Positions 1 to 20,000 of a DNA stretch of 20,000 nucleotides are shown piece after piece. This DNA is from Raillietiella orientalis (Eukaryota): positions 55,406 through 75,405 of the forward strand of contig JAYWIR010000135.1 in NCBI GenBank assembly GCA_036172245.1. The letters run 5' to 3'. Every line of letters starts with the position of its first letter. The stretch's first letter is position 1. Below the pieces are notes generated by a model. It made no database searches and had not been told where the DNA came from. It saw nothing but the letters and a program-made list of their open reading frames with translations. The position numbers were made by a program, and so were the translations under genes.

Positions 1-1445
1 GTCCCGACTGCCTGGGGAGTGCCTCCGAGGAGGAGGATGTACTTCCGGCCCCCAGGTCTTACTCACCTGTAGGGATTTTCTTCGCCGGAGCCGGCCTTCG
101 CACGGCCTTCGCACGGCCTTCGCACGGCCTTCGCACGGCCTTCACACGGCCTTCGCACGGCCTTCGCACGGCCTTCGCACGGCCTTCGCACGGCAAACAG
201 AAGGTTCGCCGTAACGAACCTCGGGCGCCTCGGAAACGTCAAGGGGAGGATCGTCGCTCCGGGTGGCAACCTCGGGAACGACGATTCGTTCCAGTGCCAC
301 CGTGCACTCGCGCAAAGTTTTCGAGCGCGGACTGGGTTCTTTCGGCCTACCGGCCGTCTTGCGCTCTCTGCTCTCCGCGGGTGGGAGTTTCTTTTGCTTT
401 CTGGCCTCTACAAGCTGCCTTCCCTCTTCGCCTTCCACCGTTTCAGAAGGTTTATCCTCTGGCTTACGCACCGGAGGTTGTGGTGTTGGCAGATTGTGCT
501 GGCCCTTTTCCACTTCAGGTCTAGAGACCTTTGAAGCGCGTTTCCCCTGCGCTTTTTTCGCGGCAGGGGGAACCGGGGTGGGGCGTTTGGGGCACACGCG
601 CCGAACGTGGCCCTTCTCCCGCACAAATGGCATTGTATATTGGGACACCTTTTACGTAGGTGTTCCACGGTATCACAATGCCCGCAATACCGGGGCTTCA
701 TAACATATCACAGGGCGACGTTTTCTTGCGCCACCTGTAGTTCGTGGAGAAGCCCACAATTCTCCCTTACGATGACCAGCGCTGCAGCCTGCTTACCAAA
801 AAGGCTATTGAAGCCGTCGAAAATGGAGGGTTTCGGCCACACTGCGTGCACCTCAGCGTACTTTCGCAGTTACTCACCAACCGCTGACCGCGTCATGCGG
901 CTGGTGATGCCAGTCATGTGGACCACCACGGAGCGGTCCATTGATACTGGCAGGATCTTGCGGCCGTCTACGTTCAGCGGCGCATGGATTAAGCGGTGAG
1001 CCAAAGTGACATCTTTGCAGACCACCTCGACCCGCTGCCCGCCGCTGAGGACGGAGAGGCCGTCCTGATCCTTCTCAGTCACATTCGCGTCGTTCAACGC
1101 TTTGCTGTAGACGCGCGCTGTCCGGCAGTCGAACAAGTTGCCTACCTGGTACACAAGCGATGGCTTGTACCCGGAGTCCGTGTATGCGGCCATCTCCGCC
1201 ATGGTTTCTGCGCTGGGCGCGGCCACAATGGCGCTCCATGTCGTCGGCGTGGCCGGGATGATTCCGGGGCGGCTGCCCCTGCTCCACTAGGCTCTGATGG
1301 CGAACTAACCTCCCCCACTCCCAGCTCCATCGCCGTGTCCTCTGGCGTCGTGGCCGTTGGACACCGACGATGTACACAAAACACCACAAACAAGAAAGCG
1401 CTTTCCTTCTACTCTTCGAGGAGTGAAGAAAGAACACGTCCTCTA
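1..1445 (-). pseudogene. Copy A: 5' terminus, 5' UTR and disrupted ORF1 (zinc-knuckle protein), running off the left edge
   Basis: ORF pieces 870..1226, 408..701 and 142..648 align with the other ORF1 copies (GY...L.Y.VGNL, SGGQ.VEV.C, C..C....HL..RC...C..C). Stops at 870-872 and 708-710, plus frameshifts. The probable start codon is now ACG at 1357, about 88 nt from the 5' motif GGACGTGTTCTTT near 1443. Confidence 0.88.
92..194. repeat. 11-bp tandem repeat (CGGCCTTCGCA), 9 full copies plus 4 nt
   Basis: Read directly. Units start at 92,103,...,180, and the fifth unit carries G>A (CGGCCTTCACA). Confidence 0.97.
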
Positions 1446-1446
1446 A

Positions 1447-1587
1447 CTGGCCTTGGAGGGGTCTGGCTGCAACGATGCAGCCATCTCCTCCGCCGCACGC
1501 TCGAGGGAGGCGTCATCGATCACGGTCTCGATGACGGACCCTTCCGCCGGTTCACTCCCCACGCTGTTGACATTTTCAACAGTGGGT
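1447..1587 (-). pseudogene. Isolated ~140-bp ORF1 fragment (B') of the copy-B subfamily
   Basis: Closely matches about 2657-2797 (encoding PTVENVNSVGSEPAE...ERAAEE.AASLQP). It is the most similar pair of segments I saw in the window. Confidence 0.9.
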
Positions 1588-2270
1588 TTGCCACCCGGAT
1601 ATGCCAAGGCATTTATTATTCTAATTTTCTACAAAAATTAGATAATAAAGTCTTTCAAACGTTAATTGTGGGAAACACTTGGATTTCCCACCTTGGTTGA
1701 CGTGTCTGTTGCCGGTGCATAGACCGGTTAGGTCCATTCCCGAGGCGCATGGGAAGGGAAAACTAGAGCAAAAACAAACAAAAAGAGAGATAACAAGGAG
1801 GGAAACAGTTGTATGGGGAGAGGGGGGGGGCAAGGAAGGGATCACTGAGCGCCTGGGTCGGTGCTCCGCATCCTGTTCAGGATACATTCAAGTTCTGTTT
1901 TAACTCTGAAAGGTAGACGCCACCTTGTCGCCGTCTCTAAAGAGATCGTCGTCCACTGGATGGCTTCCCTGCATCTTGGGCTTCTTCTTCTGGCGTGCCA
2001 CCTTTGCACAATGCCGCGCACGCAGCAGAGGACTGCTAGAGACGCAGCGGGGCGCAGGCCGTCACGCACAAAGAGGCGACGGTAAATTTCCTTAGGGTCG
2101 CCTACTGGAAGATGGAGGATTGGAGCTATTCTACTCCAGAGTCCATCCAGGGCGACACACTCGAGGGTGAGATGCGGGAAGGTTTCTCTTTTTCCGCACT
2201 CGACACAGCGGGCATCCACATTTCCCAGTGTCCAGTGAGACAGGCGTGCTCTGCTTAACAGTCCTCAGTG
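1588..2270 (-). mobile_element. Copy R: ORF2 C-terminal zinc-finger region (stop 1842-1844), 3' UTR and natural 3' end
   Basis: ORF 1842..2219 has CVECGKRETFPHLTLEC and is homologous to 4950..5453. A pyrimidine tract follows the stop, and the terminal motif is at 1588-1617. Confidence 0.92.
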
Positions 2271-2285
2271 AATCTCTTCCCGGAA

Positions 2286-4090
2286 TTACTGCCGGGAAGA
2301 TGACGGTGTGGGGGAACCCGCCTCTTCCGAGGCGGGTGAGATGAGCATTAGGGTTTCAGCCTCCTCAGGCACCTTGGGTACCATTCCGGCATCAACCCCC
2401 TCCATCTCCTCCGTGTCTGTGCGTGGTGGTCTCTCGGGTGACGATTCGCGGGATTCTCCCACGCTCATGGCACCCTCGCGGTCGGAAGTGATCTCCACGC
2501 CTTCGACCTGGAGAGGGGCTTTCCGGGGTTTGCTGGATTTCCTTCCAGCCTTCCGGCGGGGTGCCGCGGAGATGGAAACTTGGTTTCCGGCCTGCGCTTC
2601 GGGGTCGGAAGTTACAGACTCCTCGGTGGAGGCCGGACGCCTCACTGCCTTTTTGCCAGCCTTGAAGGGGTATGGCTGCAACGATGCAGCCACCTCCTCT
2701 GCCGCACGCTCTAAGGCGGGGTCATCGATCACGGTCTCGGTGACGGACGCTTCCGCCGGTTCGCTCCCCACGCTGTTGACATTTTCAACAGTGGGTTGCT
2801 CGTCGGTAGCAGCGATTTCTACCTTGCGGCGTTCGGCGTGGACGCGTTCCACGACGACACTGCATTCTTTTAAATTCTCGCTAACCTGCTGTTTTTTATT
2901 TTGGTAGGCGAGCTTTTTTTCGAATCTTCGTTCTTTCTTCGACATTTTTTTCTTTTTCGCTGTGACTTCTTGCCATTCCAACACCTGACCGCTTTTGTCA
3001 ATCTTTTCGGCATTCGTTGCCGGGTTGTCGGCTGAGGCGTGGACCACGGGAGTGGGTGGCACAGCTTGAGTGGCAGCCTTCGCCGCCAGTTTTTTCTGTA
3101 GGAGCCGCGCGCGTTTTTTTAGGTTCCTCGCGGAAATCATGCGCACAGCGGATTGTGGACAGTTCCTTCGTGTGGCCCATTGTCCCGCATACTTGGCACT
3201 GTACGTTGAGGCACCTCCTTTTGAGGTGTCTCGACGTGTTGCAGAAGCAACAGTATTTGGGCTTCCCCACGTACCAGAGGTCGACGCTTTCTCCGCCGAC
3301 CACCAGTTTGTGTGGAAGGGGAGAGTCCTCCCGAACGGTTACACGGGCAGCCGTGAGGCCGCACTAAACTGTGGTATTGTCCTCGAAAGGACTAGGCTTG
3401 TTCCATACTGCATGGACCGTGCCTTCTTTTCCCAACCCGACGCGTAACTGTTCTTTCCGCATCCGCGCGGTAACTCCTAAAAGGTGGACCACCATACTGT
3501 GGTCCGCCGTAACGAGAAGGAGCCTGCGTGTCCCCATTACCTCGAGAGTTTTAAGCAGACGTTGGGCCAGATCTGCATGTTTGCAGATCACCTCTACGTA
3601 CTGCCCCCCGCTACGAATGGTCATAGCGCAGAGCTCCTCTTCTTTAAGATCGAGAGCGCGCATCCCCTTCGAAAAGGCGCGCGCACTCTCAGCAGAATAC
3701 AAATTTCCTACCTTGTAGAATAGTGATGCGTTATACCCCTTTTCCACATAGGCAGATAATTCCGCCGCGGCTGCAGGCGATGGCGCCGACACGACGGCGC
3801 TCCACGCCCGCGCTGCAGCGGGGACCGGTTTTGGGGGGGCGGACGCCTTCACCTCCTTCTCCACTGAAGGCGACGTTGCCGCGGCCCCCTGGCACTTCAC
3901 CTTCTCCAGAGGCGACGTTGCTGCCGCCACCTGGCACTCTATTTCTTCAGGAGGCGACGTTGCCACCGCCCCCTGACACGTACTGGTGGTCGCGTCAGGC
4001 ATTGCTGCCTGATCGACCACCACCACACACGAAGCCTACACCTAGGGACGGTTCTCGGCACGAGGAGCACCGAGGAAACCCGTCCGCTCT
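2286..4090 (-). pseudogene. Copy B: 5' terminus, 5' UTR and full-length but disrupted ORF1 (ATG 4002, stop 2286)
   Basis: ORF pieces 3364..4026, 2998..3303 and 2286..3146. Knuckles CCFCNTSRHLKRRC and CQVCGTMGH. In-frame TAG at 3364 and a frameshift near 3150-3170. The 5' motif GAGCGGACG is shared with copy E. Confidence 0.92.
3853..3979 (-). repeat. Imperfect 42-bp x3 coding repeat in the ORF1 N-terminus of copy B
   Basis: AGGCGACGTTGC recurs at 3868, 3910 and 3952. Translation gives CQGAVATSPPEEIE / CQVAAATSPLEKVK / CQGAAATSPSVEKE. Confidence 0.9.
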
Positions 4091-4552
4091 AGCCGACGTA
4101 AAGCCTTCGACTGCGTCGTCCAGGAGCTCTTTCTGGAGCTCCTGGAACGCTTGGAATTTCCGGCCGTCTTCCTGGCCTACCTGCGCTCCTCCTGGCGCTT
4201 TGCGTTCATCAATATTAATTTCAGCGGCCGGCAGGTGTTCGGCGTGCCGCTTCGTCGTGGTATCCGGCAGGGTGACAGCATCACCCCCTGCTCTTCAGGA
4301 TCTACTTTGAGTTGGTGCTGAGAGCATACAGGGAGACTTTGGCAACCCTGCCGAGCTCGTGTCCCGGCACGCCTGCCGTGTCGGCCTATGCCGACGATCT
4401 TCTGCTTCTTCTTCCCGTGTCCACCCCGGCATCGGCGCTCGAGGACTTCACCCAGTTGCTATACCGTGGGACAGGCCTCCAGGTAAGCAGGACGAAGTCG
4501 TCTTTGCTTTTCACCGACTCGACGAGGGCCGGACGGTCGGACTTGATTCGCT
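4091..4552 (+). pseudogene. ORF2 fragment Q1: reverse transcriptase core (about domains 3-6)
   Basis: Manual translation: KAFDCV...PLRRGIRQGDSITP (frameshift) LLFRIYFELVLR...SAYADDLLLLLP...TGLQVSRTKS. Confidence 0.93.
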
Positions 4553-4595
4553 GAGCTGGGTTTTGCTCAGGGAGCTGACCAAAAACGCGTGCGGC
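4553..4595 (-). mobile_element. ~45-bp stub of an element 5' terminus (copy-C-like)
   Basis: Minus strand CGCACGCGTTTTTGGTCAGCTCCC matches CGCACGCGTTTTTGGTGAGCTCCC at the copy C 5' end (about 8465-8488). Confidence 0.8.
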
Positions 4596-4946
4596 ACCGG
4601 CGAATGTTTGCCGCAGTTTGCGGGATTTTTACTTCTCTCTTTACGCCTAGAGGCCACCTGGGCGCCCTCTTGCGCAGCGTCTGCGGCCAGAGGGTGCTCC
4701 CGCGTTAAGGGAGGAGGAACGGCACACCTTCCAACTGGAATTTACGATGGCGGAGATTGTCTCCGCCATCAAGAATCTAAAAAAGAAGAAAGCATCAGGG
4801 AAAGACGGCCTGCCAGCTGAATTCTATTAACACTTCGCGGCCGAGTTGGCTATCCTGGTGCTCAAATTCTGTTTGCTGATCCGTGAACGCGGGGATGTCC
4901 CAAGCTCGTTCCGGTCAGTTAGAGTACGTCTCCTACCTAAGGGTGA
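4596..4946 (+). pseudogene. ORF2 fragment Q2: linker and RT domains 0-1
   Basis: Manual translation: PANVCRSLRDFYFSLYA*...EFTMAEIVSAIKNLKKKKASGKDGLPAEFY*HF...RVRLLPKG, homologous to about 16380-16730 (-). Confidence 0.92.
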
Positions 4947-5725
4947 AGGGTGAAGTGGCCCCCGGCGTCGTGGGATAATGGCACCCTTCCCCTGCAGTGG
5001 CAGGAGACGGCGTTGCTTCTGCTCCATTTGAGACTGTTAAGCAGAGCGCGCTTGTCTCACTGGACACAGGGGAGTGTGGATGCTAATTGTCCTGACTGTG
5101 GGGAAAGAGGAACCTTTCCTCACTTGATTATTCAGTGCGTTGTCCTTCGCGATATGTGGGACCGACTCTCGTTGATCCTGAACATTCCGGTGGGAGACCA
5201 AAAACATCTATTCAGACGCCTCCTGAGGCGAGACGGCTTGCCAGCCTCCGGGTGCGTAGCAGTGCTCTGCTGCATACGCGGTTTCCTGGATAAGTGGACC
5301 GCGTCAAGGGGAGGAAGAACCATTCGGATTGCCATCCACTGGGCAGCGATCTCTTTGGAGAAAGCCTGTCGTTGGCGCCGACTTAATAAACATTTGCCGG
5401 CACTTGTTCAAATCCAAAACAGGATGCAAAGGCCTCCTCACGGCGCATTGTGATCTCCTCCCTCCCACCCCATCCCCAAAAAACATTGCCCTCCATACGT
5501 TATTCTTTGTTTTTTGTTTTATTTTTATTTTCCCCGTCCCGGCGCTAGTGAGAAGGACCATATGGGCCTCCGGGACATTTAACGACAAGTGCAACAACAC
5601 GACGATAAACTTCTGAATGTCCTAAAGAAGAAAATTAACTTTGTTTAAAAATTTAGAACTTATTATGAAATTTTTGTATTCTTAAAAATTTTAATAATGA
5701 AAGCTTTGGCTTACCCGGGTAATAA
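4947..5725 (+). mobile_element. Copy Q3: ORF2 C-terminal zinc-finger region (stop 5451-5453), 3' UTR and natural 3' end
   Basis: ORF 4950..5453 contains CPDCGERGTFPHLIIQC. T-rich tract about 5500-5530, AT-rich tract about 5620-5700, terminal motif 5696-5725. Confidence 0.92.
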
Positions 5726-6776
5726 ACCTGCGCTGGAGATGAGTGCTCCTGGCCTTCTTCGTCCAGTAAGCAGGCAGACCCGGATTGTCAGGCCTGCCTC
5801 TCAGCTGCAGCCTTGAACTCCGCCAGGCGACGGACATCGGGCTTGTTAGAGAAACTTCGGGTGTGGAGATAGTTTCGGTCGTTCCTCAAGCCTTCGCCAA
5901 ATCCTGGAAGAAGTTGATAAAGGGGAAACTCGTCGCAGAACTCTCGGACTGAGCGTTTTATTTTGTCCCAGTCAGCGAGAGTCCGCAATTCGCAACTACG
6001 CAGGAATGCGCGCAGATGTTCGCGCGCTCCTGCGAGTCGCAACCAGTCCCCGGCAGGCGCCACGCTTCAGAGGGTGGACCTTTGTCGCGCAGATGAATGT
6101 TGATCACTAGCCGAGGGTGATCGGACAGCTCCGACGCAATTGCTCCTCGAGTCCCCACCCGCGTACACAGGTGGCTATCGAGGAACACGTAATCGATTCT
6201 GCGTCACACGTCGGCTTCATTAGCCAACAAGTTGCACGCGTGCATCGACGCACACAACACGTTGACCAGTTGTGCTCTTATGTCGGGCGCTTCCGACAGC
6301 AGGCGGACGTTGAAGTCTCCCGCTATCAGGTGCACCCGCCGCACGCCTGCTTCGGCCAACCAGTCTCGCCGCAGGGCTTCGAAGAACGCAGTGCGTTATA
6401 CGCGCCTGTGGCTGCTGTAGGGCGCGTATACGTTCGTGACCACGAGGTCGATCGAGTCGCACCACTTTAGAACAAGTTGCCCAACTCGTCCTTTCTCGTC
6501 GAACTGTAAACTGCGCACTGCCTTTGCGACGACTGGCTTCAGCAGGAAGGCCACTCGGCGAGAGTGGTCTCCACCGGATCGCCAAAGTAGCCTTCCTCCC
6601 GTGAGCCTCTCGATCTCCTGGACGTCCTCTCCCCTGAGGGCGTGAACCTCTTGGAGAAGTGCCAGATCGAAAGGTCTCAGGGTGTCGGCCACGCTACGTC
6701 TCTTGCTTTCGCTACGCAGCCCGTTGACATTCCAACAGGCTATACGCAGTTGCCAGCAAGAGGCGATTTCACGCAT
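5726..6776 (-). pseudogene. Copy C ORF2 N-terminus: APE endonuclease and linker, truncated
   Basis: LRIACWNVNGL..LLQEVH..NVYAP..(frameshift)..IAGDFN..RIDYVFLD..ELSDH, then DWDKIKRSVREFC...AERQA*QSGSACLLD...PAQV. Confidence 0.94.
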
Positions 6777-8490
6777 CATGCTAATGATGGTGGTGGCGAT
6801 TGTGTAGCCGCCTCTTGTTCGGGAAGCGTCTGGTCGATGTCCACTTGCATGGAAGGCGTTTCCGTAACGACCGGTACGTCGGCAGCCGGATTGAGGTGAA
6901 TCGGAAGATCGGAACGAGCGGTTTCCACGGAGGGATCCCGCGACCTCGCGGGCATCGCCTCCTCGCTACCCGAGCGCATTTCCTCCTCCACAGCCTGAGG
7001 GGGAGCGACGCGCATAGGGTTGCGGGACTTCCGGCCCGCCTTCCTCTTCGGGAGGGCGACGGTAAGAGCGTTTCCGGCTTCCGCCTCGGAATCGGAAGTT
7101 TCCGGTCCTTTGGCTTCCGCCGGACGTCTAACGGCCTTCTTTGCAGCCTTAGGCGGCTGCATTAAAAGGTGGCCGCGAGCTCCTCCGCCGCCTTCGCGAA
7201 GTTTTTCTCGTCGCTGCTGCTGGCGTTCTTGTTGCAGGATTCCTACGGCGGTTCCGCGGCGTTCGCGAGGGTTGCGGGAGTCGCGTTTGCCGATCGACGT
7301 TCGATCGACGGAACGCGCTCGATGTTAACGCGGCATTCCTTTATTATTTCGCGCGTCGTGATTTTTGTTTTGCCGTTCGCGGTTTTTTTCGGTTTGCTCG
7401 GGTTCTGTTTTAAAGATTTTTTGTGTTTTTCGTTATTGGGATTTTGATTCTTAGTTTTTTTGGTTGCCACTAGTTTCCAGTTTTCCTCGCCGATGGTTGG
7501 TTCAGAAGTCTCCTTTTGATTCTCTTGTTCCTTTTGTTCGGCTTGTTCTGAGTTTGGCTGTTTGTCGCTCTTTGCTCTTTTTTTTCTGCCTTCTTTCCTT
7601 TTTTTGAAATAGGGGTTTCAGGCGTTGTAGCGGCGTTTTCCGGACACAAAACGCTTGTGTGGCACTTAGCGCCGCACGTTGGGCATGTGGCGTCCGGGCA
7701 TCTCTTTTTAAGATGATTAAACGTGTTGCACAGCCCGCAGTATTCTTGTGTCCCTACGTACTAGAGATCAACGAGCTCGTGGTTAATCTCCAGCTTATGG
7801 GGAATTTGGATGTTTTCGCGGAGTGTCAAGCGAGCGGCAAGTCGCCCACTAAATGTTTCTCTATATGTGAAGGCGTTGGGCTTCTTCCACATCGCGTAAA
7901 TCTCTGCGAACTTGTTAATTTCAGTGCGGATGGCTTCGTCGCTCATCCGCATCGTTGTTCCTGTTAGGTGAATTACTATCAAATGATCCACCGTGTGTGT
8001 GTGGAGATTCCACCCTTCAAAGGGAACAAGCGTTTAGAGCAGTTTGTGCGTGAACGCTGCATCTCTGCAGATGAGCTCCGCAAACTGCCCTTCGCTCCGT
8101 ACCGAGAAGCACAGAATCTCCTCCTCTGTAATGCCCATCCTACAAATGGCGTTTCCAAATTTCCGCGTAGTTAGCGGTGAGTATAAATTCTTTACCTTGT
8201 ACAGCAGGGCTGAATTGTAGCCTTCTTTGATGTAGGCTTGCACTTCTGCAGCCGTGTCTTTCGGAGCCGCCGTGGCCACTTTATTCCAAGCCCTATCCGG
8301 GTTGGCTGGGGCTGATTTTGTGGTGGGGCATGACCCCACCTCCATAGGTTGGGGAGACGTGGGTCTCACGCTTCCCGTCGCAGGTGTTGCTGCGTCTCCA
8401 GGCATTTCTGCCTTCGAACGGCCGCACTTCCACCCACGAAAACTTCTTCGTAGGTTACGCTCGCGGGAGCTCACCAAAAACGCGTGCGAC
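6776..8490 (-). pseudogene. Copy C: 5' terminus, 5' UTR and disrupted ORF1 (ATG 8405, stop 6776)
   Basis: ORF pieces 8034..8519, 7761..7991, 7243..7470 and 6776..7162 are homologous to the other ORF1s. Multiple stops and frameshifts. Confidence 0.9.
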
Positions 8491-8493
8491 CAC

Positions 8494-10085
8494 AACGAAG
8501 GTGGGCCGCATCGTGCCAAAAGGTAGAGTTGGCAATCGGCCCGTTCCTGGAAGGCAGGTTCCTTCTGCTGGAACGTGCCGCTGTGTGGAACGCGTTCGCA
8601 GCTCCCATCCTCCGCCCCCTGCTCTTTGTGTGCCTCGTTCCCCGTAACTTGAAGAAAAGGACAAAATACCTTCTCCGCATCTCCCTCTGGGGCAGAGGGA
8701 GGCCACGTGCGCCTCTTAAGGACATATGCGCTCCGCGTCGTGACGAAGGCCTTGGCCTCCTAACGTTGGAGCACCTGGACATACAGCTGCGATGGCGCAC
8801 CCTCGCCATCGCAGCAAAGACATGGAGCACTTACTGGTGCGCTCCGGCCCGCATCCTTGCCAGCCGTGTATCCAGGACGCAAGAACTTGCGTCTATCCTT
8901 CTGTGCCTTGGCCGGAAGGTCAGGAGATGCGGCCTTCTTTTTGGACGCATCGAAGCTCTGGTGAGGGAAAACGGCTGGACTATATGCAGCCCCGCCAACT
9001 CCTCCGCTTGGCTGGAGGAATCCGTTGCGACGTGGGCCAAGCTAAACAATCCAGGAACCGAAAATTGGAACTGCCTACGATTCGGTTCCATCTACTGCTG
9101 CACCCTACGGAGCACTCTGGAGTGTCCCGCCAGAAGCACGCGGGCGGAGACCACCCCTTTAGCCTTGACGCTGCCCTTCCTGCGGAGGGCTTTGACCAGC
9201 GGTAGGATGCCAAAGTGACAGGTCTCCTGCCGAAACGCAGGAAAGGAAAAAAAGATGAGCGGTTGGACCATGGGAGAACTGGCAGACGCCACGACCCCTA
9301 GTGCCCTCCCACGTGGACTTTTGAGATGGGGTAAACTGCTTGGCATCCCGACGTATGACCTAAAGTGGCCCTAAGTTCTTATCGGATCCAGGCTTCTTCC
9401 TCAAGAGTGGCAAGAGTCAGCGTTGCTCCTCTTGCACTGGGGTCTACCCTGCAACGCGCGCCGCTTCCACTGGACGAGGGGAGCTGTGGATCCTGCGTGT
9501 GCCAGGTGCGGAAAGCATGACTCGCTTTCCCACCTTATATTGGATTTTGATGCCCTTCGACCCCTTTGGGAACAATTCGGGATGACCCTCGAGCTTCCTA
9601 CGGGCAGTGAACCCAGCGACGTTTTCCGCCTCCTCCTCGTGCGGGACGCCCTGCAGCCAGCAGCAGCCCTCGCAGTCCAATGCTGCGATCGAGGCATCGT
9701 GCCGGCTTGGAGAGATGCCAGCAGCGAAGATGAAGATTGGAACGAGAGGGAAGTCATCCAGCACGAAGTACTCTTCTTGCAGAGCTGCCCTGTGGCCCCA
9801 TCTGGGAAGTATGCAAACAGACCTCGAGGGCTTTCTTCGACGGATGGGCCCTCCTCACAGCTTCCGGTGATCTCTTCCCTAACCTCAAAACTCTTTTTTT
9901 TTTGGTTTATCTCTTTTATTTTTCTTTTTGTTTTTTCCCCATCTTCTTCGGCTGTCGGGGAGTGCCACGCCGGGCTGCGTCCCGATGTCCCGACAGGTCG
10001 CGTGTCAAGACGGCAGTGGGGCCTTATGCCACGAATTATAGAGAGTTTTTTCTAAATAAATGCCTTTGGCGTACCCGGGTTGCAA
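8494..10085 (+). mobile_element. Copy P: 3' part of ORF2 (post-RT to zinc finger, stop 9868-9870), 3' UTR and natural 3' end
   Basis: ICAPRRDEGLGL motif typical of L1/Tx1 ORF2 and CARCGKHDSLSHL. Internal stops at 9216 and about 9373. Terminal motif 10055-10085. Confidence 0.92.
10055..10085 (+). terminator. Conserved element 3' terminus with putative poly(A) signal (also at 1588-1617 -, 5696-5725 +, 13976-14005 -, 18848-18877 -)
   Basis: Five copies of AATAAA-like hexamer, (Y)GCC-nn-GGC, N4, CCGGGT, N3, AA. Function as a poly(A) signal is inferred from position. Confidence 0.75.
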
Positions 10086-10973
10086 CACCAAAGCTGGCAG
10101 GCAGAAGGTCCATAGGGAACTCGTCGCAAGGCTCTCGGACCGAGCGCTTGAAACGTTCCCATTCCTGAAGCGTCTGCAAGCTGAAACTTTATAGGTTTCC
10201 GTATAGATGCTTCACGGCTTCCGGAAGTTTTAGCCAGTTCCCCGGTAAGCGCCACGCAGATGACGGGAGACCTCTATCGCGTGGGCGCACCTCGAGTACG
10301 CTCCGGTCATGGTCCGAGAGTTCCTACGGAAACTTGCAGCTCCTGCCCACGCGTGAGCATAGGTGCTGGTCAAGAAACACGTGATATATGCTGTCGGCCA
10401 TTTCCGGATCTCCGGCGAACAAGTTGCGTGTATGTATCTCTGCGCACAGCTCGTTCACGCGGTCCCGAAGTGTGTCGGACGCATCTCACAGCAGGCGAAG
10501 GTTAAAGTCACCTGCGATTAGGTGCGCTTTGCATACTCCCGCTTCGTCCAGATATTCGCGCCTCAGAGTAAAGAAGAAATCTCTCCTTGCCTTCGCCCTT
10601 AGCGCGTCGCTGCCGCATGGGGCGTACAGGTTGGTAATGACCAGATCGATGGAGTCAGACCACCTGATGGTCAACTGGCGACGTGACCAGCACTATCGAA
10701 CCTAACGCCTTTTGCCTCTACCTCGACCGCTGGACGAACCAGGAACGCGTTACCGCAAGATTTAACGGTGCCGCAACGCCACATCAGCCGTCCACCCGAG
10801 ATACGCTCGATCTCCGTTGCTTGGTCTGCGGAGATCACGTGGATCTCTTGCAGCAGCACCAGGTGAAACGATGCCAGGGTGGAGGCCACGTCTCGTCTCT
10901 TGCCGTCGTTGCTTAGCCCGTTGACGTTCCAACAGGCAATTCGCAGACGGCGGCAAGAGGCGATTCTTGTCAT
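10086..10973 (-). pseudogene. Copy D ORF2 N-terminus: APE endonuclease, truncated
   Basis: MTRIASCRRLRIACWNVNGL..LLQEIH..NLYAP..IAGDFN..VFLD..ELSDH..WERFKRSVRE. Confidence 0.93.
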
Positions 10974-12657
10974 TACGGCTGCAAACGTGGCGTTGCAGCA
11001 CCTGTCAAGGGACAGGTGGGAGGGACGAGTAAGGGGACCACGGCCATCTCAGGCACTTGAAACACCTGGGGCACAGACTCTACCCTTTCCCTTCCTCCGA
11101 AGTCGTAGAGTGGGGTTAACTCTCGAGGACAGTTCCCGGAATTCCCCATTTTCTTCGCACCCTCACTTCCCTCGATTATCTTCCTTTTTTCCACGGACGG
11201 GATAATTTTGCGGGTAGCCTTCTGTGTGCGACTGGCTTTCGGGCGGGAGGCCGTGATGCCGTAGGCTGTGTTTTCCGCCTCAACTCTAGAGATCGTTATC
11301 TCCGACTTCTTGATCGATGTCGGACGCCTTAAAGCAGTTTCGCGGATTTGGGGGGACGCTGCAAGGACACAGCGAGCTCCTCCGCCGCTCCCTCAAAGGC
11401 GACGTCGTCGAGCATGCGTTCGACGACAGACGCCACCTCCGGGTCGATAGCCTCCGGTATTAATTTGCCGGAGGGCTAAAAGTCGGCAGCGAAAATATCA
11501 AACGCTGCTCCGTCGTCATCAAGCGCATTCATGCGCTTGATGACGGCAAATTCTCGCTGCGTTTCGAGAGATTTGTTTTTGCTTCCTTGAGGCTTTTCTG
11601 CCTCTCTGATTTTACTACCTGCCATTGAGGTTTCTGGCCGTGCTCCTCGACCTTTTACAAGTTTCCCGGGATCTCGGAGCTGTCCTCCACCTGGGGCACA
11701 ATAGTTGTTTGTTTAGCTTAGGCTCACTCTCCAGCTGCCTGAACTCTTGACTTGTTGGCCACCCGCTTCTTCGCATTCCGTGCGGACGCGAAATGGACTT
11801 CATTTTGCGGCTACACCGGAAGAGTGTGCCTGGGTTGCTTGCATTGCTTGCACTGCAAGTAAGGGCACCTTTTTTTCAGGTGACCTGAAGTGCTGCAATG
11901 CTCGCAGAAATGCGGCTTACCAAGATACCATATGTCAATGGGCTCACCGTTGACCTCCAGCTTGTTAGGTAGGGAGCAACCCTCGTGGACCCTGATGCGC
12001 GCGGAAGGCATACCGCAATTCAGGAGATCGTACTCCCAAAACGGAATCGGCCTTTTCCACAACGCGTGGACGGTTCCAAATTTAACTAGTTCCTTTCAGA
12101 CAGCCTCTTCGGTCATCCGGAAGGTGATTCCGAGGAGGTGGATCACGATAGATCTATCCTTCTCGATGAAGAGGAATCGGCGATTCCACAAAGAAACAGG
12201 TGTACCTAGCAGACCCTGGGCAAGCCTCGCTTCTTTGCAAATCACTTTAACGTACTGTCCACCACTCCTGATGCTCATCGCCAAGAGCTCCTCCTGGGGT
12301 ACTTTGAGAGAGTGCATCGCTTTCCTGAAAGCGCTCGCACTCTCAAAGGAGTAAAGGTTGCCTACCTTGTAGAGTAGACGGGTATTGTACCCCTCCTCCA
12401 GGTAGGCTTCCAACTCTGCTGCATCCGCTTGCGTTGGTGCCGCAAGCACGGAACTCTAGCTTCTCCCTAACTCTAGCATGAGTGGAGGCGGTTGCCCACA
12501 AATCCATTAATTCTGGGGTCGACAAAGAAGTGGCTCCTTGCTTATCACTGGTGGTGGTCCCAGGCTTGCAGCCTAACCAACACATGATCCACTGACACAC
12601 CAGAAAAAAGGAAAATAAAACCACAAACGCTCACGAACGAAATAAAAACCGGTTAGC
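10973..12657 (-). pseudogene. Copy D: probable 5' terminus, 5' UTR and heavily disrupted ORF1
   Basis: ORF pieces 12096..12449 and 11811..12062 (CEHCSTSGHLKKRC, CKQCKQPRH), and 10973..11194. The start codon appears damaged near 12567, and the 5' motif is more degenerate than in other copies. Confidence 0.87.
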
Positions 12658-12659
12658 TC

Positions 12660-13078
12660 TCGAACGCGGACTGGGACGATCTGAAAAGATCGGTCCGCGA
12701 GTTCTGTAGCCGGTTTCCCTTCCGCCTGCTCCCCCGTGGCTTCGGGGAAGGAGTGACCAGCAGCAGAGAGTTTCTGCAGGCTCGCTATTTCTCTCGATGC
12801 CCGGACTTCCGGTACCTTGCTGAGTACAATGCCAAGGGCGAGGGCAATTATGGCAGTCAAAAGGGGCTTGTCTGCTCGACAACCAGGGTTTGAAGTGCTC
12901 GGGCGCGGCCGACGTTCGCCGCTTATTAATGCCCTATTACTCCTCGTTCTATGCTGAGGAGTCAACAAAACGCAGTCTTACGGAGCTGCCTCTGCAGGCG
13001 GATTCCTCTGCGTTCCACGAGGAGAAACGCGCCACTCTTTAATTGCCCTTCACGGCCGTAGATGTGTCTTCCGCGGTG
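12660..13078 (+). pseudogene. ORF2 fragment V: APE-RT linker
   Basis: Manual translation: DWDDLKRSVREFCSRFP...LAEYNAK..ACLLDNQG...YYSSFY...LPFT, homologous to about 5730-5975 (-) and 16570-16965 (-). Confidence 0.88.
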
Positions 13079-13975
13079 GTGGGCGGATCTCGAACAGATC
13101 CCTGGAGGGAGGCTGTGGTATAGGTGTGGGAAATCTAAAAGTTGTGATGTTGCCTACCTGCTTCGGCCAGCCGTCGAGGCCGCAGTGCGGGGCATGCGGT
13201 TCGACGATCACGGTCGTGTCGGCCAGCTGACTCTCAGGTGGTCCGAATCTATCGATCTGAACATTACGAACGTATACGATCCGAGCTGCGCAAACCTGAC
13301 GAAAAGAAGGACGACGAAAGAAATTTTACTTGCACTCCGGCGCGACTGGCTCACCCAAGCAGGCGTGTGTAATGCCAATCTGGTTGCAGGGGATTTCAAC
13401 GTTAGCCTGAAACCAGATGGGAAGAACCACGAGCGTGATCCGGTCAACGAGGTGCGCATGGCGGTTCACACCTGTAATTTGCTGGCCAGTGCACCGGAGA
13501 TGGAGGACAGTATCGACCGCGTGTTCCTTGATCAGCGACCGTGCGAGCTGATCTAGTTCTCGAGATCCATCCGTGCGAGAGAAGCCCCCACTCTTCAGCG
13601 TGGCGTCTGCCATGAGACTAAATGAAGCTCCCGGACGCAGCCGAACATCTCTGCACGTTCATTCGGAGCTCGAGAATGCGGTCAATCCAGGCTTGGGACC
13701 GCTTCAAGCGGTCGAACCAGAAGTTCTGGGACCAGTTCCCTCTGCACCGCCAACCTACGGGTTTCGGGACCGCGCTCCGCAACGAACGAGCCTATCTGCA
13801 GGCCCGTCGTAATGCCTGGACCCCGGACATCCGCAGGCTGGCGGAATACAATGCGGCAGCCGAGAGGCAAGCCTGGCATTACTGATCGGCCAGCTTGCTG
13901 GAGGATCAGAAGCAAGAGCACTTGCACCCGCCCAAATCCGATGCCTGCTGCGGAGATCCTACTCCTCCCTGTATG
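13079..13975 (+). pseudogene. ORF2 fragment Y: APE endonuclease (from about codon 55) and linker
   Basis: ORFs 13062..13556 (GGRLW..NVYDP..VAGDFN..SIDRVFLD) and 13622..13885. The SDH motif is not recognisable. Confidence 0.9.
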
Positions 13976-16900
13976 TTGCCACCCGGTCACGCCGGGGCGT
14001 TTGTTGTAAACTCTCTTTACAATTTGTGGTACTAGGCTCCACTACGGCCAACTCAACCGGAGCTGCCGGGTCGCTGGTACGCAGACCGGCGCGACTCTCC
14101 TCGGCAGAGGAAAAGGGTGGGGAAAAACAAAAATAAAAATAAAACAGAAAAACAAAAAGTTGGAGGGCAGGGAAGTGATCACGGTCCACTGGGAGGAGGG
14201 TTCATCTTTTCCAGGATACCCTTCATGTCCGTCCGAATGATTCACAGGTGGGGCCATCTGGTTGCAAGACGCAGGTAGCGGACTGCGAGTTCTACGGCAC
14301 CCCTCTCGTGGATCGAACTTCTGTAACCGCTTTAGCTCGTCACGCTCCCTCGGATGCAGCAGAGTGCTGCCAGGGCGGCGCCTAGTCGCAGGGCAACCCG
14401 CAGGAAACGAAGCCGAAAAACGTCTATGGGCTGGCAGCCCTCCTGCAGCCGCAGGGAGGTACCAAAACGCTCCCACAGGGGTCGGAGGGCAGCACAATCA
14501 ACAAGGAGGTGGGGGAGGGTATTCTGCTCCTCACACTTAATGAACGCAGGAATCACTCGACCCCTAGTACAGTGGTGGCGGCGTGCGTTGCAGGGTAGAC
14601 CCCAATGCAACAGCAGAAGCGCCGACTCCTCCCACTTCAGGGAGAGGATCCTCGATCCAATAAAATCCGGGGGCCACATCAGGTCATCCATCGGGAAGCC
14701 GAGCAGCTCGCCCTATCACTTTAAAGCACGCGGGAGGACACTTCGGGTAGTGGCATCGGCCAGTTGCGCCGTGGTCCAGCCGCTTAACTTCTTCTCTCTG
14801 CCTGCGATTCGGCAGTAGACTTGTCACCTAGGCTTGCGGCTGCTGAAGTGCTCCCTCCTCAAAAAGGGCATCGCCGTAGCTAGAAGCGTGGTCTCGGAAC
14901 ACGTGCACCGGGCGGGACATTGCAAGAAGGTCCGCAGGCTGCAGCGGGCATGGTTGTGGAATCGCAGGCAGTTGTTGTTTTCTTCTCCTTGGGCATTTAA
15001 CCTCGCCCACGTTCCAACAGATTGCTCCAGCCATGCGGAGGAGATGGCGGGTCTGCATGCCATCCAGACGTCCTCCTTAACCAATGTTGCCATGCGTTCG
15101 AGCAGTAGGCCGCATCTTCTTATCTTCTGGCCTGGACGCAGAAGAAAAGACGCCAGTCCATCGCAGCGCGACACACGGCTGACTAGGATGCGGGCCGTAA
15201 TGCACCAAAGGGTGCTCCATAACTTCGCTGCGATGGCCCGGGAACGCCATCGCAGCTGAGTCACCACTCTCCCCAGCGTCAAGAGGCCGAGACCGCCATC
15301 CCGACGCGGAGCACACAAGTCCATCAACGGGACTCGGGGCCTCCCACTTCCCCGAAGGGGGATCCTTAGGAGGTCCTACGTCCGTTTCTTCAACTGCGGC
15401 AGGACGGGGCAAACAAAAAGCAGGGAGCGGAGGATGGGAGCCGCGAACGCGTTCCACACCGCGGCCCGTTCCGGAAGGAGAAACCTGTCTTCCAAGAACG
15501 GGACGATCGCCAATTCTACTTACCCAAGACGACCCGACCACGCTTCCTGAGGGGAATAGTCCCCCAACGGACCACCAAGGTACTTCAAGCAACTCGCCGT
15601 GGGGATCCCCAAACGGATACAGTCAGGCCGTCCGACCCACGTCGCACCAACCGCTACCACCGATGACTTCGCCTTATTTACCCGTAGTTCAGTCCCGCGG
15701 CTTAGCAGATCGAAGAATTCCTCGACTGCGGTTGCCGGGGCAAACATAGGCAAAAGGAGCAGAAGATCATCGGCGTAAGCAGCTACGGCGGGCGTGCCGG
15801 GGCACGAGCTCGGCAAGGCAGCCAAAGTCACCCTGTATGCTCTCAGCATTAACACGAAGTAGGCCCTGAAGAGCAGGGGACTAAGGCTATCGCCCTGCGT
15901 GATGCCCCGTTGCACCGGCACGCCGTACACTTGTTGACTACTGAGAGAGACATTGATGATAGCGTTGCGCCACCAGGAGCGCAGTTAGGTTAGTAGGAAG
16001 GGTGGTAAGCCCATGCGACCCAGGAGATCCAACAAAAGCACCTGGTCCACGCAGTCGAACTTATTATGCAGATCGACCGCGATCGCTAGGGCCCCCTTCT
16101 CCGCCCAGGTGTCCCTTCCCTGCCCGGCAGGCGCCTTCAAAGCGGGGTAGCCACTCACACGCTTTCGATCATGTTTACTACTCTGCCAGCAAAACTATGT
16201 GCTCGCAAAGAACAGGTTGGCATCCATACTTCGTCCAAGAACAGTGTAAGTCTGTTCCGGGCTAATTACGGATTCTGCCACCTGTCCTAGACGCGACGCC
16301 CACAGTCCGGATATCAGATTGGCGTCCGTATTCACAATGGTGATCCGACGCCAGTTGCTGAGTTCTCTGAGGTCTCCTCTCTTGGGAAGGAGCCTCACTC
16401 TGGCTGAGCGAAACGAGGCGGGAACATCGCCTTCGTCTCGGATAAGCCTTGTCAACTGAAGCACCAGGGGTGCAAACTCTGCCGCGAAGCATTAAAAAAA
16501 CTTCGCGGGCAGGCCGTTCTCCCCTGGTGCTTTCCGCTTCTTAAGCCTCTCGATACCGGAGAGAATTTCGACGGTGGTGAAAGGCTCGTCCAGGCTTTCC
16601 TTCTCCTACTCCTCTATTGCAATGGCACCATCCGGAAGCAAGCGCCAAGAAGCATTTTGTTCAAAAGGCGCCCTGGTGTGAAAAAAGCAATAATAAAGCC
16701 GCACGAGGTGCAGTATTCTAGCCGGAGCCGAGTGCTCCCGGCCCTGGTCGTCCAGCAAGCTGGCCGACCCGGATTGCCAGGCTTGTTGTTCGGCCCCGGC
16801 TTGATTCTCCGCCAGGCAACAAATGTTGGGGGTCCTTGCGTAACAGCGGGCATACAAATACACCCGTTTGTTACGCACCTCATACCAAAATCCGGGGGGC

Positions 16901-16981
16901 AGGCGGTGCAAAAGGAACTCCTCGCAGAACTTGCGGACTGAGGCCTTAAAAAGGTCCCAATCAGCGAGTTTGCGGAGCGTC
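13976..16981 (-). mobile_element. Copy X: longest ORF2 piece (linker, complete RT region, zinc-finger region; stop 14179-14181), 3' UTR and natural 3' end
   Basis: KAPGENGLP, LLPKRGDLRELSNWRRITIVNTD, ISPEQ, VDLHNKFD, RGITQGDSLSPLLF, AYADDL, KYLG, CAPRRDGGLGL. Many stops and frameshifts. Terminal motif 13976-14005. Confidence 0.95.
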
Positions 16982-17062
16982 GAGCGGACGTGTCTTTTCC
17001 CTGCTCCTGAATTTCAATTTTCGGTGCTGCTTTGTGTGGTGTGGGTGGAGGATTAGGCAGCA
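16982..17062 (+). promoter_or_regulatory. 5' UTR, possible internal promoter (homologues end near 1445, 4090, 8490, 12657 on -)
   Basis: Conserved ACG(T/G/C)GT-pyrimidines-CTCC start, GT-rich middle, and AGGCAG(C/A)AATGCCTG start context in copies B, C and E. Promoter role is inferred by analogy with other LINEs. Confidence 0.55.
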
Positions 17063-18684
17063 ATGCCTGATTCCACCACCGGTAAGATTCCGGGGGCAAT
17101 GACCCCATTGCCCTCGGAGGAGATGGAAGTAAGGGCTCCCGCCCCCACTGATGCGCCCCCGGCCCTACCCAGGGCTTGGAAAGCCGTGGCTGCCGCGCCC
17201 ACGCCGACGGCTGTGGCGGAAATGCGGGCCAACCTGGAGGAGGGGTACAACCCACCCCTCCTATACAAGGTAGGTGGTTTATTGTTTCCCGAGAACGCGC
17301 GCGCCTTCTCGCAGGCGATGCGTGCTCTCGACGTAAAAAAGGAGGAGCTTCTGGCAATGTCCGTCAGAAGCGGGGGACAATTTGCGGAAGTTATCTGCAA
17401 CGAGGCAACTCTTGCGCAGAGACTTCTGCGAACCCCCGTAATTATGGGCAGCCAAAGGCTTCTCCCAATTACTGAAGACCGGTCGATGATCACTCACCTG
17501 ACCGGGATTACGTTCCGGATGACGAAGGAGGCCGTCCGGAACGAAATAATAAATTTGCGACCATCCACGCGCTGTGGGGGAAGCCAACTTCGTTCGCTGA
17601 TTACGACGGGTTGCTTGGCGGCCTAAGTGCAGCGCGAGTGACGGTTCGCGAAGGGTGTGAGTTTACACACAAACTCACCGTCAACGGTGAATCCGTCGAC
17701 GTGTTGTACGTGGGGATACCCAAGTTCTGCGGCTGCTATAGCAGCTTTGGTCACCTTAAGATTAGGTGCCCGAGAGAACAGTGCCAACAATGCAAACAAG
17801 CGCGGCACAGCCGTCTGGTGTGCCCCCAAAACACAGTCTGCGTCGTGTCCGCAAAAAACGCGAGAAAGCGCGCGGATAAAAAAGGAAAGAAGCTGGCAGC
17901 TCCTGCTGCTGCTAAGGAGGTCACCACCGCCACCAAGGCGAAAAGCAGCCCCGAGACCCCTGCGAAAAACGCCAAAAAGGTCAAGGGCGAGGGTCAAAAG
18001 CCAGGGTGGCAGAAGGTCGATCCCAAGAAAAACTTCCATAAGAAGGGAAAGAACGTGGCGAAACGGAACGAAACCGCTCCGCGCCGCGAAAAAATTAAAA
18101 GCTGCTGCGTCGTTGTAGAGCGTCTTGCCGCCATCGACGAATGCGGCGCTAAAGAACTCGCTGCTGTCCATGCACAACCCTCCGTTGACAAAGTCACCAA
18201 GGAGGGGAGCGAAGCTGCGGCGTCCGTCAACGAGCCCACGCTCGATGACGTCGCCTTCGAGCGCGCCGTGGAGGAAATGGCTGCTTCGTTGAAGCCGGCT
18301 GCCCCCAAGGCTGGGAAGAAAGCCGTCAGGCGTCCGGCTTCCCCTCAGGAGTCGGCCACTTCCGACCACGAGGTGAAGGCCGGAAACATAGCATCCATCT
18401 CCGCGGCACCCCGCAAAAAGGCAGCACGAAAGTCCACAATGCCCCGGAAGATCTTCTCCCCCGACGAAGGGGAAGAGATGGCTTCCGGTGGCGAGGGTGC
18501 CATGAGCGTGGGTAACTCCCGGAACCCGTCATCCGAGAGATTTCCACGCACGGACTCGGAGGGGATGGAGGGGGTGGAGGCCGATCAGGTGCCTCAGGTG
18601 CCTGAGAAGGCCGAAACCCCAATGGACATCCCGCCTGCCTCGCAAGAGGTGGGATCCCCCACACCTCAATCTTCCCAGAAGTAA
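16982..18684 (+). pseudogene. Copy E: 5' terminus, 5' UTR and nearly intact ORF1 (ATG 17063, stop 18682-18684; one frameshift near 17550)
   Basis: ORFs 17063..17626 and 17611..18684 join into about 540 aa. Second knuckle is CQQCKQARHSRLVC; the first is CGCYSSFGHLKIRC. Confidence 0.92.
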
Positions 18685-18847
18685 TGCCGTGAATCTCCTC
18701 CCGCCGTCGTCTGCGCATCGCCGTTTGGAACGTGAACGGGCTAAGCGACGACGGCAAGAGGCGTGACGTGGCCGCCACCCTTGCATCCTTCGACCTGGTG
18801 CTGCTGCAGGAGATCCACGTGATCTCCGCAGATCAAGCTTGGGAGAT
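18684..18847 (+). pseudogene. Copy E ORF2 start (first ~55 codons of APE), truncated
   Basis: MP*ISSRRRLRIAVWNVNGLSDDGKRRDVAATLASFDLVLLQEIHVISADQAWEI, with a stop at codon 3 where the homologues have Arg. Confidence 0.92.
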
Positions 18848-20000
18848 TTCTCACCCGGTCACGCCGGGGCGTTTATTCCATATAACAGAACCAAAAAAGC
18901 CATTATACAAAATAAACCAGTTGGGAACCAAATTCCCAACCGACGACTGAACAAGAATGAAGAGAATATTGCTAGCACGCAGGCCAGAGTAACAGTTTTG
19001 TGAACGGTGTGGGGGAGCGAGGAACACAAAGAAACCAAAATAAAATAAAAACAATGAATAAGGAGGACAGGATAAGGGTCTTTGGGATCGCTCTGGAAGA
19101 CACGGGGATGAAAGCATGGGCACCGGAAATTTTACCGAGCGAACGGAAACGGGGTATGGGTGGGCGAGAGGTCGCAGGGGTCACCGGATTACGCCGTTCT
19201 CAAAGGTGCGTAAACCGGCGATGTATGCCGGTGATCTCCTCATTCACCTTGTTACGAAGATGAGACCACCTTGAAGCCTTCTTCATGAATTGAGCTGCAA
19301 GCAGGTGAGCCTACCTTCGCTGCGCTGACAACTCCAGGGCGTGGCGGGCCTTCACGATGGTGCGAACGCAAGACAGAGTTGCGACAATCGCGCTAAAACA
19401 AAGTCCATTTCTGCTGAAGAAGCTCCGCAGCACATCAATTTTACTGCCTCCTTCTGGCATGATGGCCGAAGTGAGCCTTTGCCACAGATTCCGGAGGTCA
19501 CCGCAGACCAGCAAAAAGTGCGGAAAAGACTCGAACTCTCCGCACCTTATGCAGTTTGGCAAAGAAGCTCCCCCGGAAACGATGCTTCGCTGCCTATTAC
19601 AGTGTAATGCACAATGTAAAAAGAGCAGCACATCTTGTTTCCACTGAAATGGGAACACGGAGCTGTCCAAACAAACGGAGGGAACCACTATCTCTCCGGG
19701 GGGCACACTTAAAAGTTCGCTTCACCGAAGCAGGCCCTTCACCCGATTCCGAGGTGTGGCGACTTGCACCAGCTCCTTTGTCGTCCAGCTGCCGAGGAGC
19801 TTACAGACTCCCGCTATTTTGCAGAAGAACTCCCATTCCGCCGGCAGGCAACCTTCGTTGCTTGCCCTGAGAGCAGACAGCGCTGCGGCAAGAGTTGTGG
19901 CGGCCAGACGATCCGACAACTTCTTGTCCTGCATGACTTCGACCATTTGATGACTGAGGAGAAGTCGCAGGGGTCGAAGATCTTCCGGGCGCGTTCCTTC
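18848..20000 (-). mobile_element. Copy W: divergent ORF2 C-terminus, 3' UTR and natural 3' end, running off the right edge
   Basis: ORFs 19722..19946 and 19311..19706 (CIRCGEFESFPHFLLVC) align distantly with copies P and X. Terminal motif 18848-18877. Confidence 0.9.

Follow-up and report, generated by a model that had tools for sequence, protein, structure and literature searches.

Zepp and ZeppL are L1 long interspersed nuclear elements (LINEs) whose clusters occur singly on each chromosome, at the presumed centromere; Zepp ends in a 3' poly(A) tail. The accessible text of two papers states, as a first-pass annotation of the DNA analyzed here had noted, that Zepp of Coccomyxa subellipsoidea C-169 inserts into earlier copies of itself, and describes Zepp and ZeppL clusters that grow in this way and consist almost only of the element (PMC3446292, PMC8226300); in the available parts of the literature these clusters are reported to form putative centromeres in green algae (PMC3446292, PMC8226300, 10.1101/2022.06.16.496473, 10.1101/2025.03.28.645958, 10.1101/2024.02.27.582245). 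The available portion of the Chlamydomonas v6 preprint adds that the fine structure of such repeats "warrants further study" (10.1101/2022.06.16.496473). Here we analyze a 20,000-bp stretch of Raillietiella orientalis DNA (contig JAYWIR010000135.1, positions 55,406 to 75,405; hereafter the window), which is composed entirely of pieces of one L1-like LINE family, junction gaps of a few bases excepted, and contains no ordinary genes. The explanation we favor, with a probability of roughly 0.55, is that the window holds part of a cluster of one deeply diversified family formed by repeated target-primed reverse transcription (TPRT) insertion into older copies. Judged from the sequence, self-nesting is well supported, and serial antisense insertion of different copies is the best reading; the antisense pattern is unproven as a rule.

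Natural termini, their orientation and the host breakpoints

Positions within the element are given on a full-length coordinate system of ~5480 nt (~5.5 kb) built from two ruler copies in the window, with copy e, reversed, supplying coordinates 1-2572 and copy g, reversed, placed so that its position 1 is coordinate 2475. The strand and partner of each piece were assigned by Pfam, by tblastn with the metagenome protein P0001, and by blastn and tblastx against reference copies from the window. A regular-expression scan found exactly five terminal 3' blocks, each consisting of a hairpin, the motif CCGGGT and a further 5-6 nt ending in AA, at 1593-1610(-), 5703-5720(+), 10062-10080(+), 13981-13998(-) and 18853-18870(-). 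The hairpin has 5 bp, with one covarying pair across copies, and no poly(A) or A run is present at any of the five natural 3' ends (~1588, 5725, 10085, 13976 and 18848), which are spaced 4137, 4360, 3891 and 4872 bp apart. The 3' untranslated regions (UTRs) upstream of the terminal hairpin (5600-5700, 9990-10060 and 1610-1660) are AT-rich, as in TTAAAAATTTAGAACTTATTATGAAATTTTTG, in an element that is otherwise 57% GC.

At the other end of the element, five 5' starts resemble (T)AGAGCGGACGKGT, a start type also given as AGAGCGGACG, and are followed 60-90 nt downstream by GGCAGCAATGCCTGA with the ATG of open reading frame 1 (ORF1). These are the complete 5' ends at ~1445(-), 4090(-), 8491(-), 12657(-) and 16982(+); a sixth, at ~4597(-), survives only as a remnant of 30-35 nt (u), so that five of the six copies with a visible 5' side have a complete 5' end. 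The remnant is recognized from 24 nt at 4570-4593 that match 8465-8488, the first bases of piece c, at 23 of 24 positions and align with the remaining 5' starts in the same register; the similarity flanking this repeat falls to about 65-70%. It is more likely, on this match, to be what is left of another 5' end of the c type; it is possible instead that the repeat is a target-site duplication in an element, D, that joins the pieces b1 and d on either side. The first-pass annotation had placed natural ends at these positions, with 3' ends every 3.9-4.9 kb, and both claims stand, as the five 3' blocks and six 5' starts were recovered there and the measured spacing is 3891-4872 bp.

All 11 natural termini adjoin another member of the family. 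Nine of them (4090, 4597, 8491, 12657, 16982, 5725, 10085, 13976 and 18848) meet ORF2, in every case on the opposite strand, and none of the five natural 3' ends adjoins same-strand ORF2. For this sample, which comprises nine junctions from one 20-kb window selected after the fact for its pattern, the two-sided binomial p value is 0.0039. The earlier count of nine antisense junctions out of nine is thus reproduced, its weakest member being 4597, which depends on a 30-nt stub with a rival reading. A companion claim, that insertions into ORF1 are in the sense orientation (two of two), held only as a description. The two termini concerned, 1445 and 1588, are indeed on the same strand as the ORF1 sequence they meet, but they are the two sides of a single 139-nt fragment (1450-1588) and do not make a rule. 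This fragment is 92% identical to 2659-2797, the ORF1 of the very copy (a) whose 3' end it adjoins, and matches h positions 1195-1330; because of its identity to a's own ORF1 it looks more like a template jump than the outcome of an ORF1 rule, and from sequence a template jump or capture is as good an explanation as an insertion rule.

Beyond what the first-pass annotation had noted, the points at which host copies are interrupted cluster in the linker between the endonuclease and the reverse transcriptase (RT) of ORF2. Breakpoint coordinates were taken from blastn, tblastx and local alignments, and nine were placed on the full-length element: 1848, 2475, 2489, 2572, ~2733, ~2740, 2779, 3388 and 3906. 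Six of these fall within the 303 nt at 2475-2779, a clustering with a simulated P of 0.0002 when breakpoints may fall anywhere in the element and 0.0015 when they are confined to ORF2. Converted to human ORF2p by alignment arithmetic, the hot region covers roughly residues 320-420, a span that lies upstream of the RT match and extends just past its N-terminal edge. Different hosts were twice interrupted at nearly the same position: the 5' ends of h and e fall at 2475 and 2489, and the u|b2 and b3|c joints at ~2733 and ~2740. Piece f2, moreover, begins no more than about 7 nt from the position at which the 3' end of i cuts h (1842-1848; both on the plus strand, at 13084 and 18847 of the window), so that coordinates 1842-1848 may have been reused as well, as a third such site. 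Where 5' ends are joined to their hosts, the adjacent host sense sequence is similar to the 5' start of the element in reverse complement (GCTCGA-like), which suggests microhomology-guided joining and would help to explain the reuse of 2475-2489. Extended pairing of the RNA tail with the target is unsupported at the 3' junctions, where none of the five tails is shortened and the ambiguity at a joint never exceeds 1-3 nt. The preference for antisense insertion and the hot region in the linker are both statistically suggestive within the one window from which they are drawn.

Pieces of the cluster from left to right

At the left edge of the window, z (1-1445, minus strand; 5' UTR and ORF1) runs from its natural 5' end at ~1445 past the window edge. 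It was placed by tblastx, in which e positions 149-817 match 1289-621, and contains an ORF at 142-651(-) with the ORF1 C-terminal KAVRRP motif. The 139-nt ORF1 fragment (1450-1588, minus strand) follows, with the 5' end of z on one side and the 3' terminus of a2 on the other, both on its own strand. Piece a2 (1589-2270, minus strand) comprises the ORF2 C-terminus and 3' UTR with a natural 3' end at ~1588-1593 (tblastx to g3 2372-2874). Its partner a1 (2271-4090, minus strand) holds the 5' UTR, ORF1 and first ORF2 bases, with a natural 5' end at ~4090 (blastn to h 48-1712). Copy a therefore keeps both natural ends, and an internal deletion of ~3.1 kb joins a1 to a2 at 2270-2277.

The region to the right of a1 is the most fragmented of the map. 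An RT piece, b1 (4097-4562, plus strand), corresponds to P0001 residues about 230-388 and coordinates 3388 to ~3862, as seen by tblastn and in the translations; it is followed by the 5'-end remnant u (4563-4597, minus strand; 30-35 nt), placed by its 23/24 match to 8465-8488. Next, b2 (4598-4948, plus strand; tblastn, tblastx and alignment) carries the linker and RT N-terminus, P0001 residues 12-127, and is cut at ~2733, and b3 (4951-5725, plus strand) carries the ORF2 C-terminus with zf-RVT and the 3' UTR up to a natural 3' end (Pfam; 3' block 5703-5720). The b2-b3 joint (4948|4951) is a 1.7-kb internal deletion with GTGAAG microhomology. The downstream ends of these large deletions in a and b are no more than about 75 nt apart on the element (coordinates ~4850 and ~4775). 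Piece c (5726-8491, minus strand; Pfam, blastn and tblastx) comprises the 5' UTR, ORF1, endonuclease and linker, from a 5' end at ~8491 to a cut at ~2740, and d (8492-10085, plus strand; tblastn, P0001 residues 402-584) comprises the C-terminal part of the RT, starting at ~3906, through to a natural 3' end. Because b1 stops about 44 nt short of the start of d, the two are probably parts of one element, D, to judge from their coordinates.

The right half of the window is simpler. The 5' half e (10086-12657, minus strand; Pfam Exo_endo_phos and alignment) has a natural 5' end at 12657 and is cut at 2572. It is followed on the plus strand by f1 (12658-13078), with the linker and RT N-terminus from ~2489 to 2904 (tblastx to g3 17-430, and alignment), and by f2 (13084-13975), with the endonuclease and linker, ~1842-2779 (local alignment to e and c, and tblastx). 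Piece g (13976-16981, minus strand) covers ORF2 from the linker, at 2475, to the natural 3' end (tblastn, P0001 residues 1-599; Pfam RVT_1). Next comes h (16982-18847, plus strand), which runs from its natural 5' end at 16982 through the 5' UTR, ORF1 and the first ~50 endonuclease codons to a cut at 1848; it was defined by ORFs at 17057-17626 and 17476-18684 and by 85% identity to e over 167 bp. The last piece, i (18848-20000, minus strand; tblastx to g3 2093-2737), contains the ORF2 C-terminus and 3' UTR, with a 3' end at ~18848, and continues past the right edge.

Some local features of these pieces are recorded here. The 85% identical island shared by e and h (10810-10976 and 18681-18847) spans ~170 nt at the start of the endonuclease, outside which the two pieces are ~61% identical, and it contains an inverted repeat with 7-nt arms (GGAGATC/GATCTCC) and a 5-nt spacer that is lacking in c. 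Short tandem repeats occur inside ORF1 in z (92-194; 11 nt, 9.4 copies, with a repeated peptide in the antisense frame), in a1 (3868-3979; 42 nt, 2.7 copies) and in c (7511-7548; 18 nt, 2.1 copies).

Independence of the insertions and rival readings

Neighboring pieces come from different lineages, to judge from the sequence differences among them. The window is filled by 13 or more separate pieces of distinct lineage, pairwise 50-76% identical, and at least nine sublineages at this level of identity lie side by side in the 20 kb. The 5' halves are mutually 46-65% identical overall, d and g share 70% DNA identity over 1578 bp (63% at the protein level), and the overlap of g with f2 is 68% identical. 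Where e and f1 overlap, 47 of 83 alignment columns are identical (57%), which is within the 57-66% range of unrelated pairs. Frame disruptions nonetheless number only 1.4-1.7 per kb in a1, d and b3, as against 5.5-7.5 in shuffled sequence. The scarcity of disruptions despite such low identity indicates that most of the divergence arose between active lineages, before insertion, and pieces that are divergent and in some cases nearly intact are better explained as separate insertions of different lineages. The sequence differences between adjacent overlapping pieces likewise argue that the joints bring together different elements and are not inversions of one RNA or composite duplicates.

These comparisons bear directly on two simpler accounts of the strand changes. 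L1 5' inversion reportedly arises by twin priming (Ostertag and Kazazian 2001), and each 5' half and its adjacent 3' part might have come from one RNA in this way; the geometry fits, since as in twin-primed L1 copies a full 5' end stands head-to-head with a 5'-truncated 3' part, here at 4090, 8491, 12657 and 16982. The segments so joined are of different lineages, however, which contradicts twin priming at 12657, where e and f1 overlap, and it was ruled out at the joints tested by the 47/83 identity there and the 68% identity of g and f2. Moreover, the 3' ends lie inside family DNA, at an internal antisense position and not at a duplicated target, and the order of u, B and C (capitals denote elements) is reversed relative to expectation. 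We consider twin priming a very improbable source of the strand changes. An equally improbable origin is an assembly artefact, or duplication with inversion of a composite unit. The regular period of 3.9-4.9 kb would suit such an origin, as would the 5' junctions at 12657 and 16982, which lie at nearly the same host position. On the other side, the units are only 50-76% identical and junction positions differ in two of four units; assemblers would not be expected to collapse or mis-join copies so divergent, which makes assembly mis-joins unlikely, and old duplicates that had decayed would hardly retain near-intact ORF1s such as those of h and a1, which are 65% identical.

Serial nesting, which these data favor, does meet a number of misfits, and they weigh against it. 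One is at the b1/d site, the sole site in the window with both flanks visible: b1 ends ~44 nt before d, the interval holds just the u stub, the 3' part of B and the 5' half of C, and the complementary parts (3' half of C, 5' part of B, body of U) are missing. Plain nesting there would need, by our estimate, a deletion of ~8-11 kb ending within tens of bases of older junctions. The coincidence of f2 with the cut in h is in the wrong order for the two halves of one host, no nick-site motif is shared among the five 3' junctions, and target-site duplication is unverified, each insertion having one of its junctions outside the window or missing. Frame disruptions are not denser in the copies inferred to be older, the figures being 1.4/kb in d and 3.4/kb in c, although d should be the older; this measure is crude, and an age order based on it was dropped as too crude and non-monotonic. 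With regard to orientation, the events number only nine and come from a single window picked because of its pattern, and counting the two ORF1 joints as failures gives 9/11 antisense and a binomial p of 0.065. Two further same-strand ORF2-to-ORF2 joints lack natural termini (13078|13084 and 4948|4951, the latter within 4941-4956), and the first of these might represent a 5'-truncated copy inserted into ORF2 in the sense orientation, which would be a counter-example.

A rival account is that nesting is real and follows no orientation rule, the nine antisense joints being a chance run in a window picked for its regular look. After-the-fact selection, the p value of 0.065, the 30-nt remnant at 4597 with its rival reading and the possible sense joint at 13078|13084 all lend this account some weight. 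We nevertheless regard it as unlikely, given the two-sided p of 0.0039 for 9/9 and the positional clustering (P 0.0002-0.0015), which an orientation fluke does not predict. The rule proposed by the first-pass annotation is accordingly left with its observational basis intact and its generality not established.

The misfits at the b1/d site bear instead on the number of events. Several joints may have been made in single complex events, through RT jumps between the 3' ends of RNAs or cDNAs or through retro-copied read-through of a nested locus, in which case independent insertions would number well below nine. End-to-end template jumping by non-long-terminal-repeat RTs is known from the R2 literature. 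Such events would account for the presence of u, B and C at one site in D with b1 and d ~44 nt apart, for the repetition of the first 24 nt of C in u at 23/24, for the near-coincidence of the cuts in B (~2733) and C (~2740), for the ORF1 fragment at the 3' end of a with its 92% identity to a's ORF1, and for the microhomology at the internal deletions. They would also require several RNAs at once, since neighbors are of different lineages where they overlap. While evidence from the window fits complex events and nesting followed by deletion alike, we rate the former, as a general account of the joints, as unlikely. Of the serial nesting put forward in the first-pass annotation, then, the self-nesting of separate copies holds as the best reading, given the differences between lineages; the full nested order is not established, in that host halves are absent at the b1/d site.

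Under serial antisense nesting, the pattern could be produced as follows. The endonuclease, or the ribonucleoprotein, would prefer to nick the coding strand of the endonuclease-RT linker, and the 3'-OH of the host sense strand would then prime on the RNA at its 3' end, which has the hairpin and lacks poly(A); with the host coding strand as the primer, the new copy would come to lie antisense to its host. The cDNA would usually extend to the 5' end of the RNA and be joined to upstream host DNA through a few bases of GCTCGA-like microhomology. Repeated insertion into the latest insert would give alternating strands and a 3' end every 4-5 kb, and later deletions and RT template jumps could have left the same-strand joints and the ORF1 fragment. 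A nick preference for the linker coding strand would thus yield both the orientation and the hot region. A stronger proposal is that the integration machinery recognizes the linker, a stretch of ~300 nt on the coding strand of the element itself, and inserts full-length copies antisense there, reusing nearly the same positions, in a habit kept across many diverged sublineages; we advance this tentatively, as a proposal with somewhat less than an even chance of being correct. If true, it would represent self-directed, orientation-fixed targeting that builds strand-alternating, possibly centromere-type arrays, with a strand-specific target in coding sequence and one niche kept while lineages diverged to 50-65% identity, and it would explain the resistance of the array to loss by direct-repeat recombination.

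Family identity and comparison with known systems

The order of domains in ORF2, from Pfam and the map of copies, is apurinic/apyrimidinic (APE) endonuclease, RT and zf-RVT, with domains found on both strands of the window. Matches above the Pfam curated cut-offs were obtained for Exo_endo_phos at 10671-11048(-) (25.8 bits against a cut-off of 24.5) and RVT_1 at 15520-15984(-) (34.1 against 29.6); a second Exo_endo_phos match at 6396-6965(-) and the zf-RVT match were both under the curated cut-off. ORF1 contains a canonical CCHC knuckle, read from the translation of 17476-18684. In the protein collections searched, the closest relative is P0001, a 619-residue metagenome protein on a 2870-bp contig, which matches four pieces of the window at 56-72% identity and a fifth, f1, at ~36% (tblastn); the next-best protein among 1.84 billion representatives searched is 34% identical. 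Among solved structures, P0001 is closest to human LINE-1 ORF2p (E 7e-40 to 5e-39, residues 395-773), with R2 far weaker (E 7e-17 to 1.5e-11). The family is assigned to the L1-like LINEs because human LINE-1 ORF2p is the best solved relative of its ORF2 and because its ORF1 carries the CCHC knuckle. A metagenome scan for related loci returned only seven, all distant RTs with 22-61% identity over short stretches; one distant match was found in a scan of prokaryote genomes, no related loci in a viral scan, and only generic RT clusters in a search of the Atlas. The protein searches yielded no close relative with a name, and no named algal one. As far as these sequence searches reach, the family is isolated in sequence space, with one protein relative and the rest at 34% or less.

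Like human LINE-1 (8c8j, 8uw3, 8sxt), the family has two ORFs and combines an APE endonuclease, an RT and a C-terminal zinc region. It differs from human LINE-1 in having no poly(A), in the CCHC knuckle of its ORF1 and in targeting itself. A defined target with a fixed orientation is otherwise a property of site-specific LINEs such as R2, TRAS/SART and Tx1, and the R2 endonuclease is restriction-like. Some site-specific LINEs are listed in the accessible part of PMC10088271. The present family would resemble them in having a defined kind of target and an orientation fixed relative to it, and would differ in that the target is its own coding region, with several sites across ~300 nt, and that its endonuclease, unlike that of R2, is of the APE type. 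If the antisense preference and the hot region hold genome-wide, they would show a retrotransposon confining itself to its own copies; if the pattern fails genome-wide, the window is a well-preserved nested LINE cluster and no more.

The available text of PMC3446292, PMC8226300, 10.1101/2022.06.16.496473, 10.1101/2025.03.28.645958 and 10.1101/2024.02.27.582245 gives no rule for orientation or position, and a prior description elsewhere is possible. In Zepp and ZeppL, according to the accessible text, a self-nested cluster consists almost purely of the element, and here all 11 natural termini lie in family DNA; both are GC-rich, at 61% in Zepp (PMC3446292) and 49-60% per kb in the window. The two differ at the 3' end, which here is a hairpin without poly(A), and in this respect some plant L1 lineages are described, in the available text, as having a stringent 3' end (PMC3472496). 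They differ also in arrangement, as Zepp forms tandem arrays of mostly 5'-truncated 3' ends in the accessible part of PMC8226300, while the window has alternating strands and complete 5' ends are common. On this comparison, the window appears to be a variant of Zepp-type self-nesting, of which the alternating-strand form would be new.

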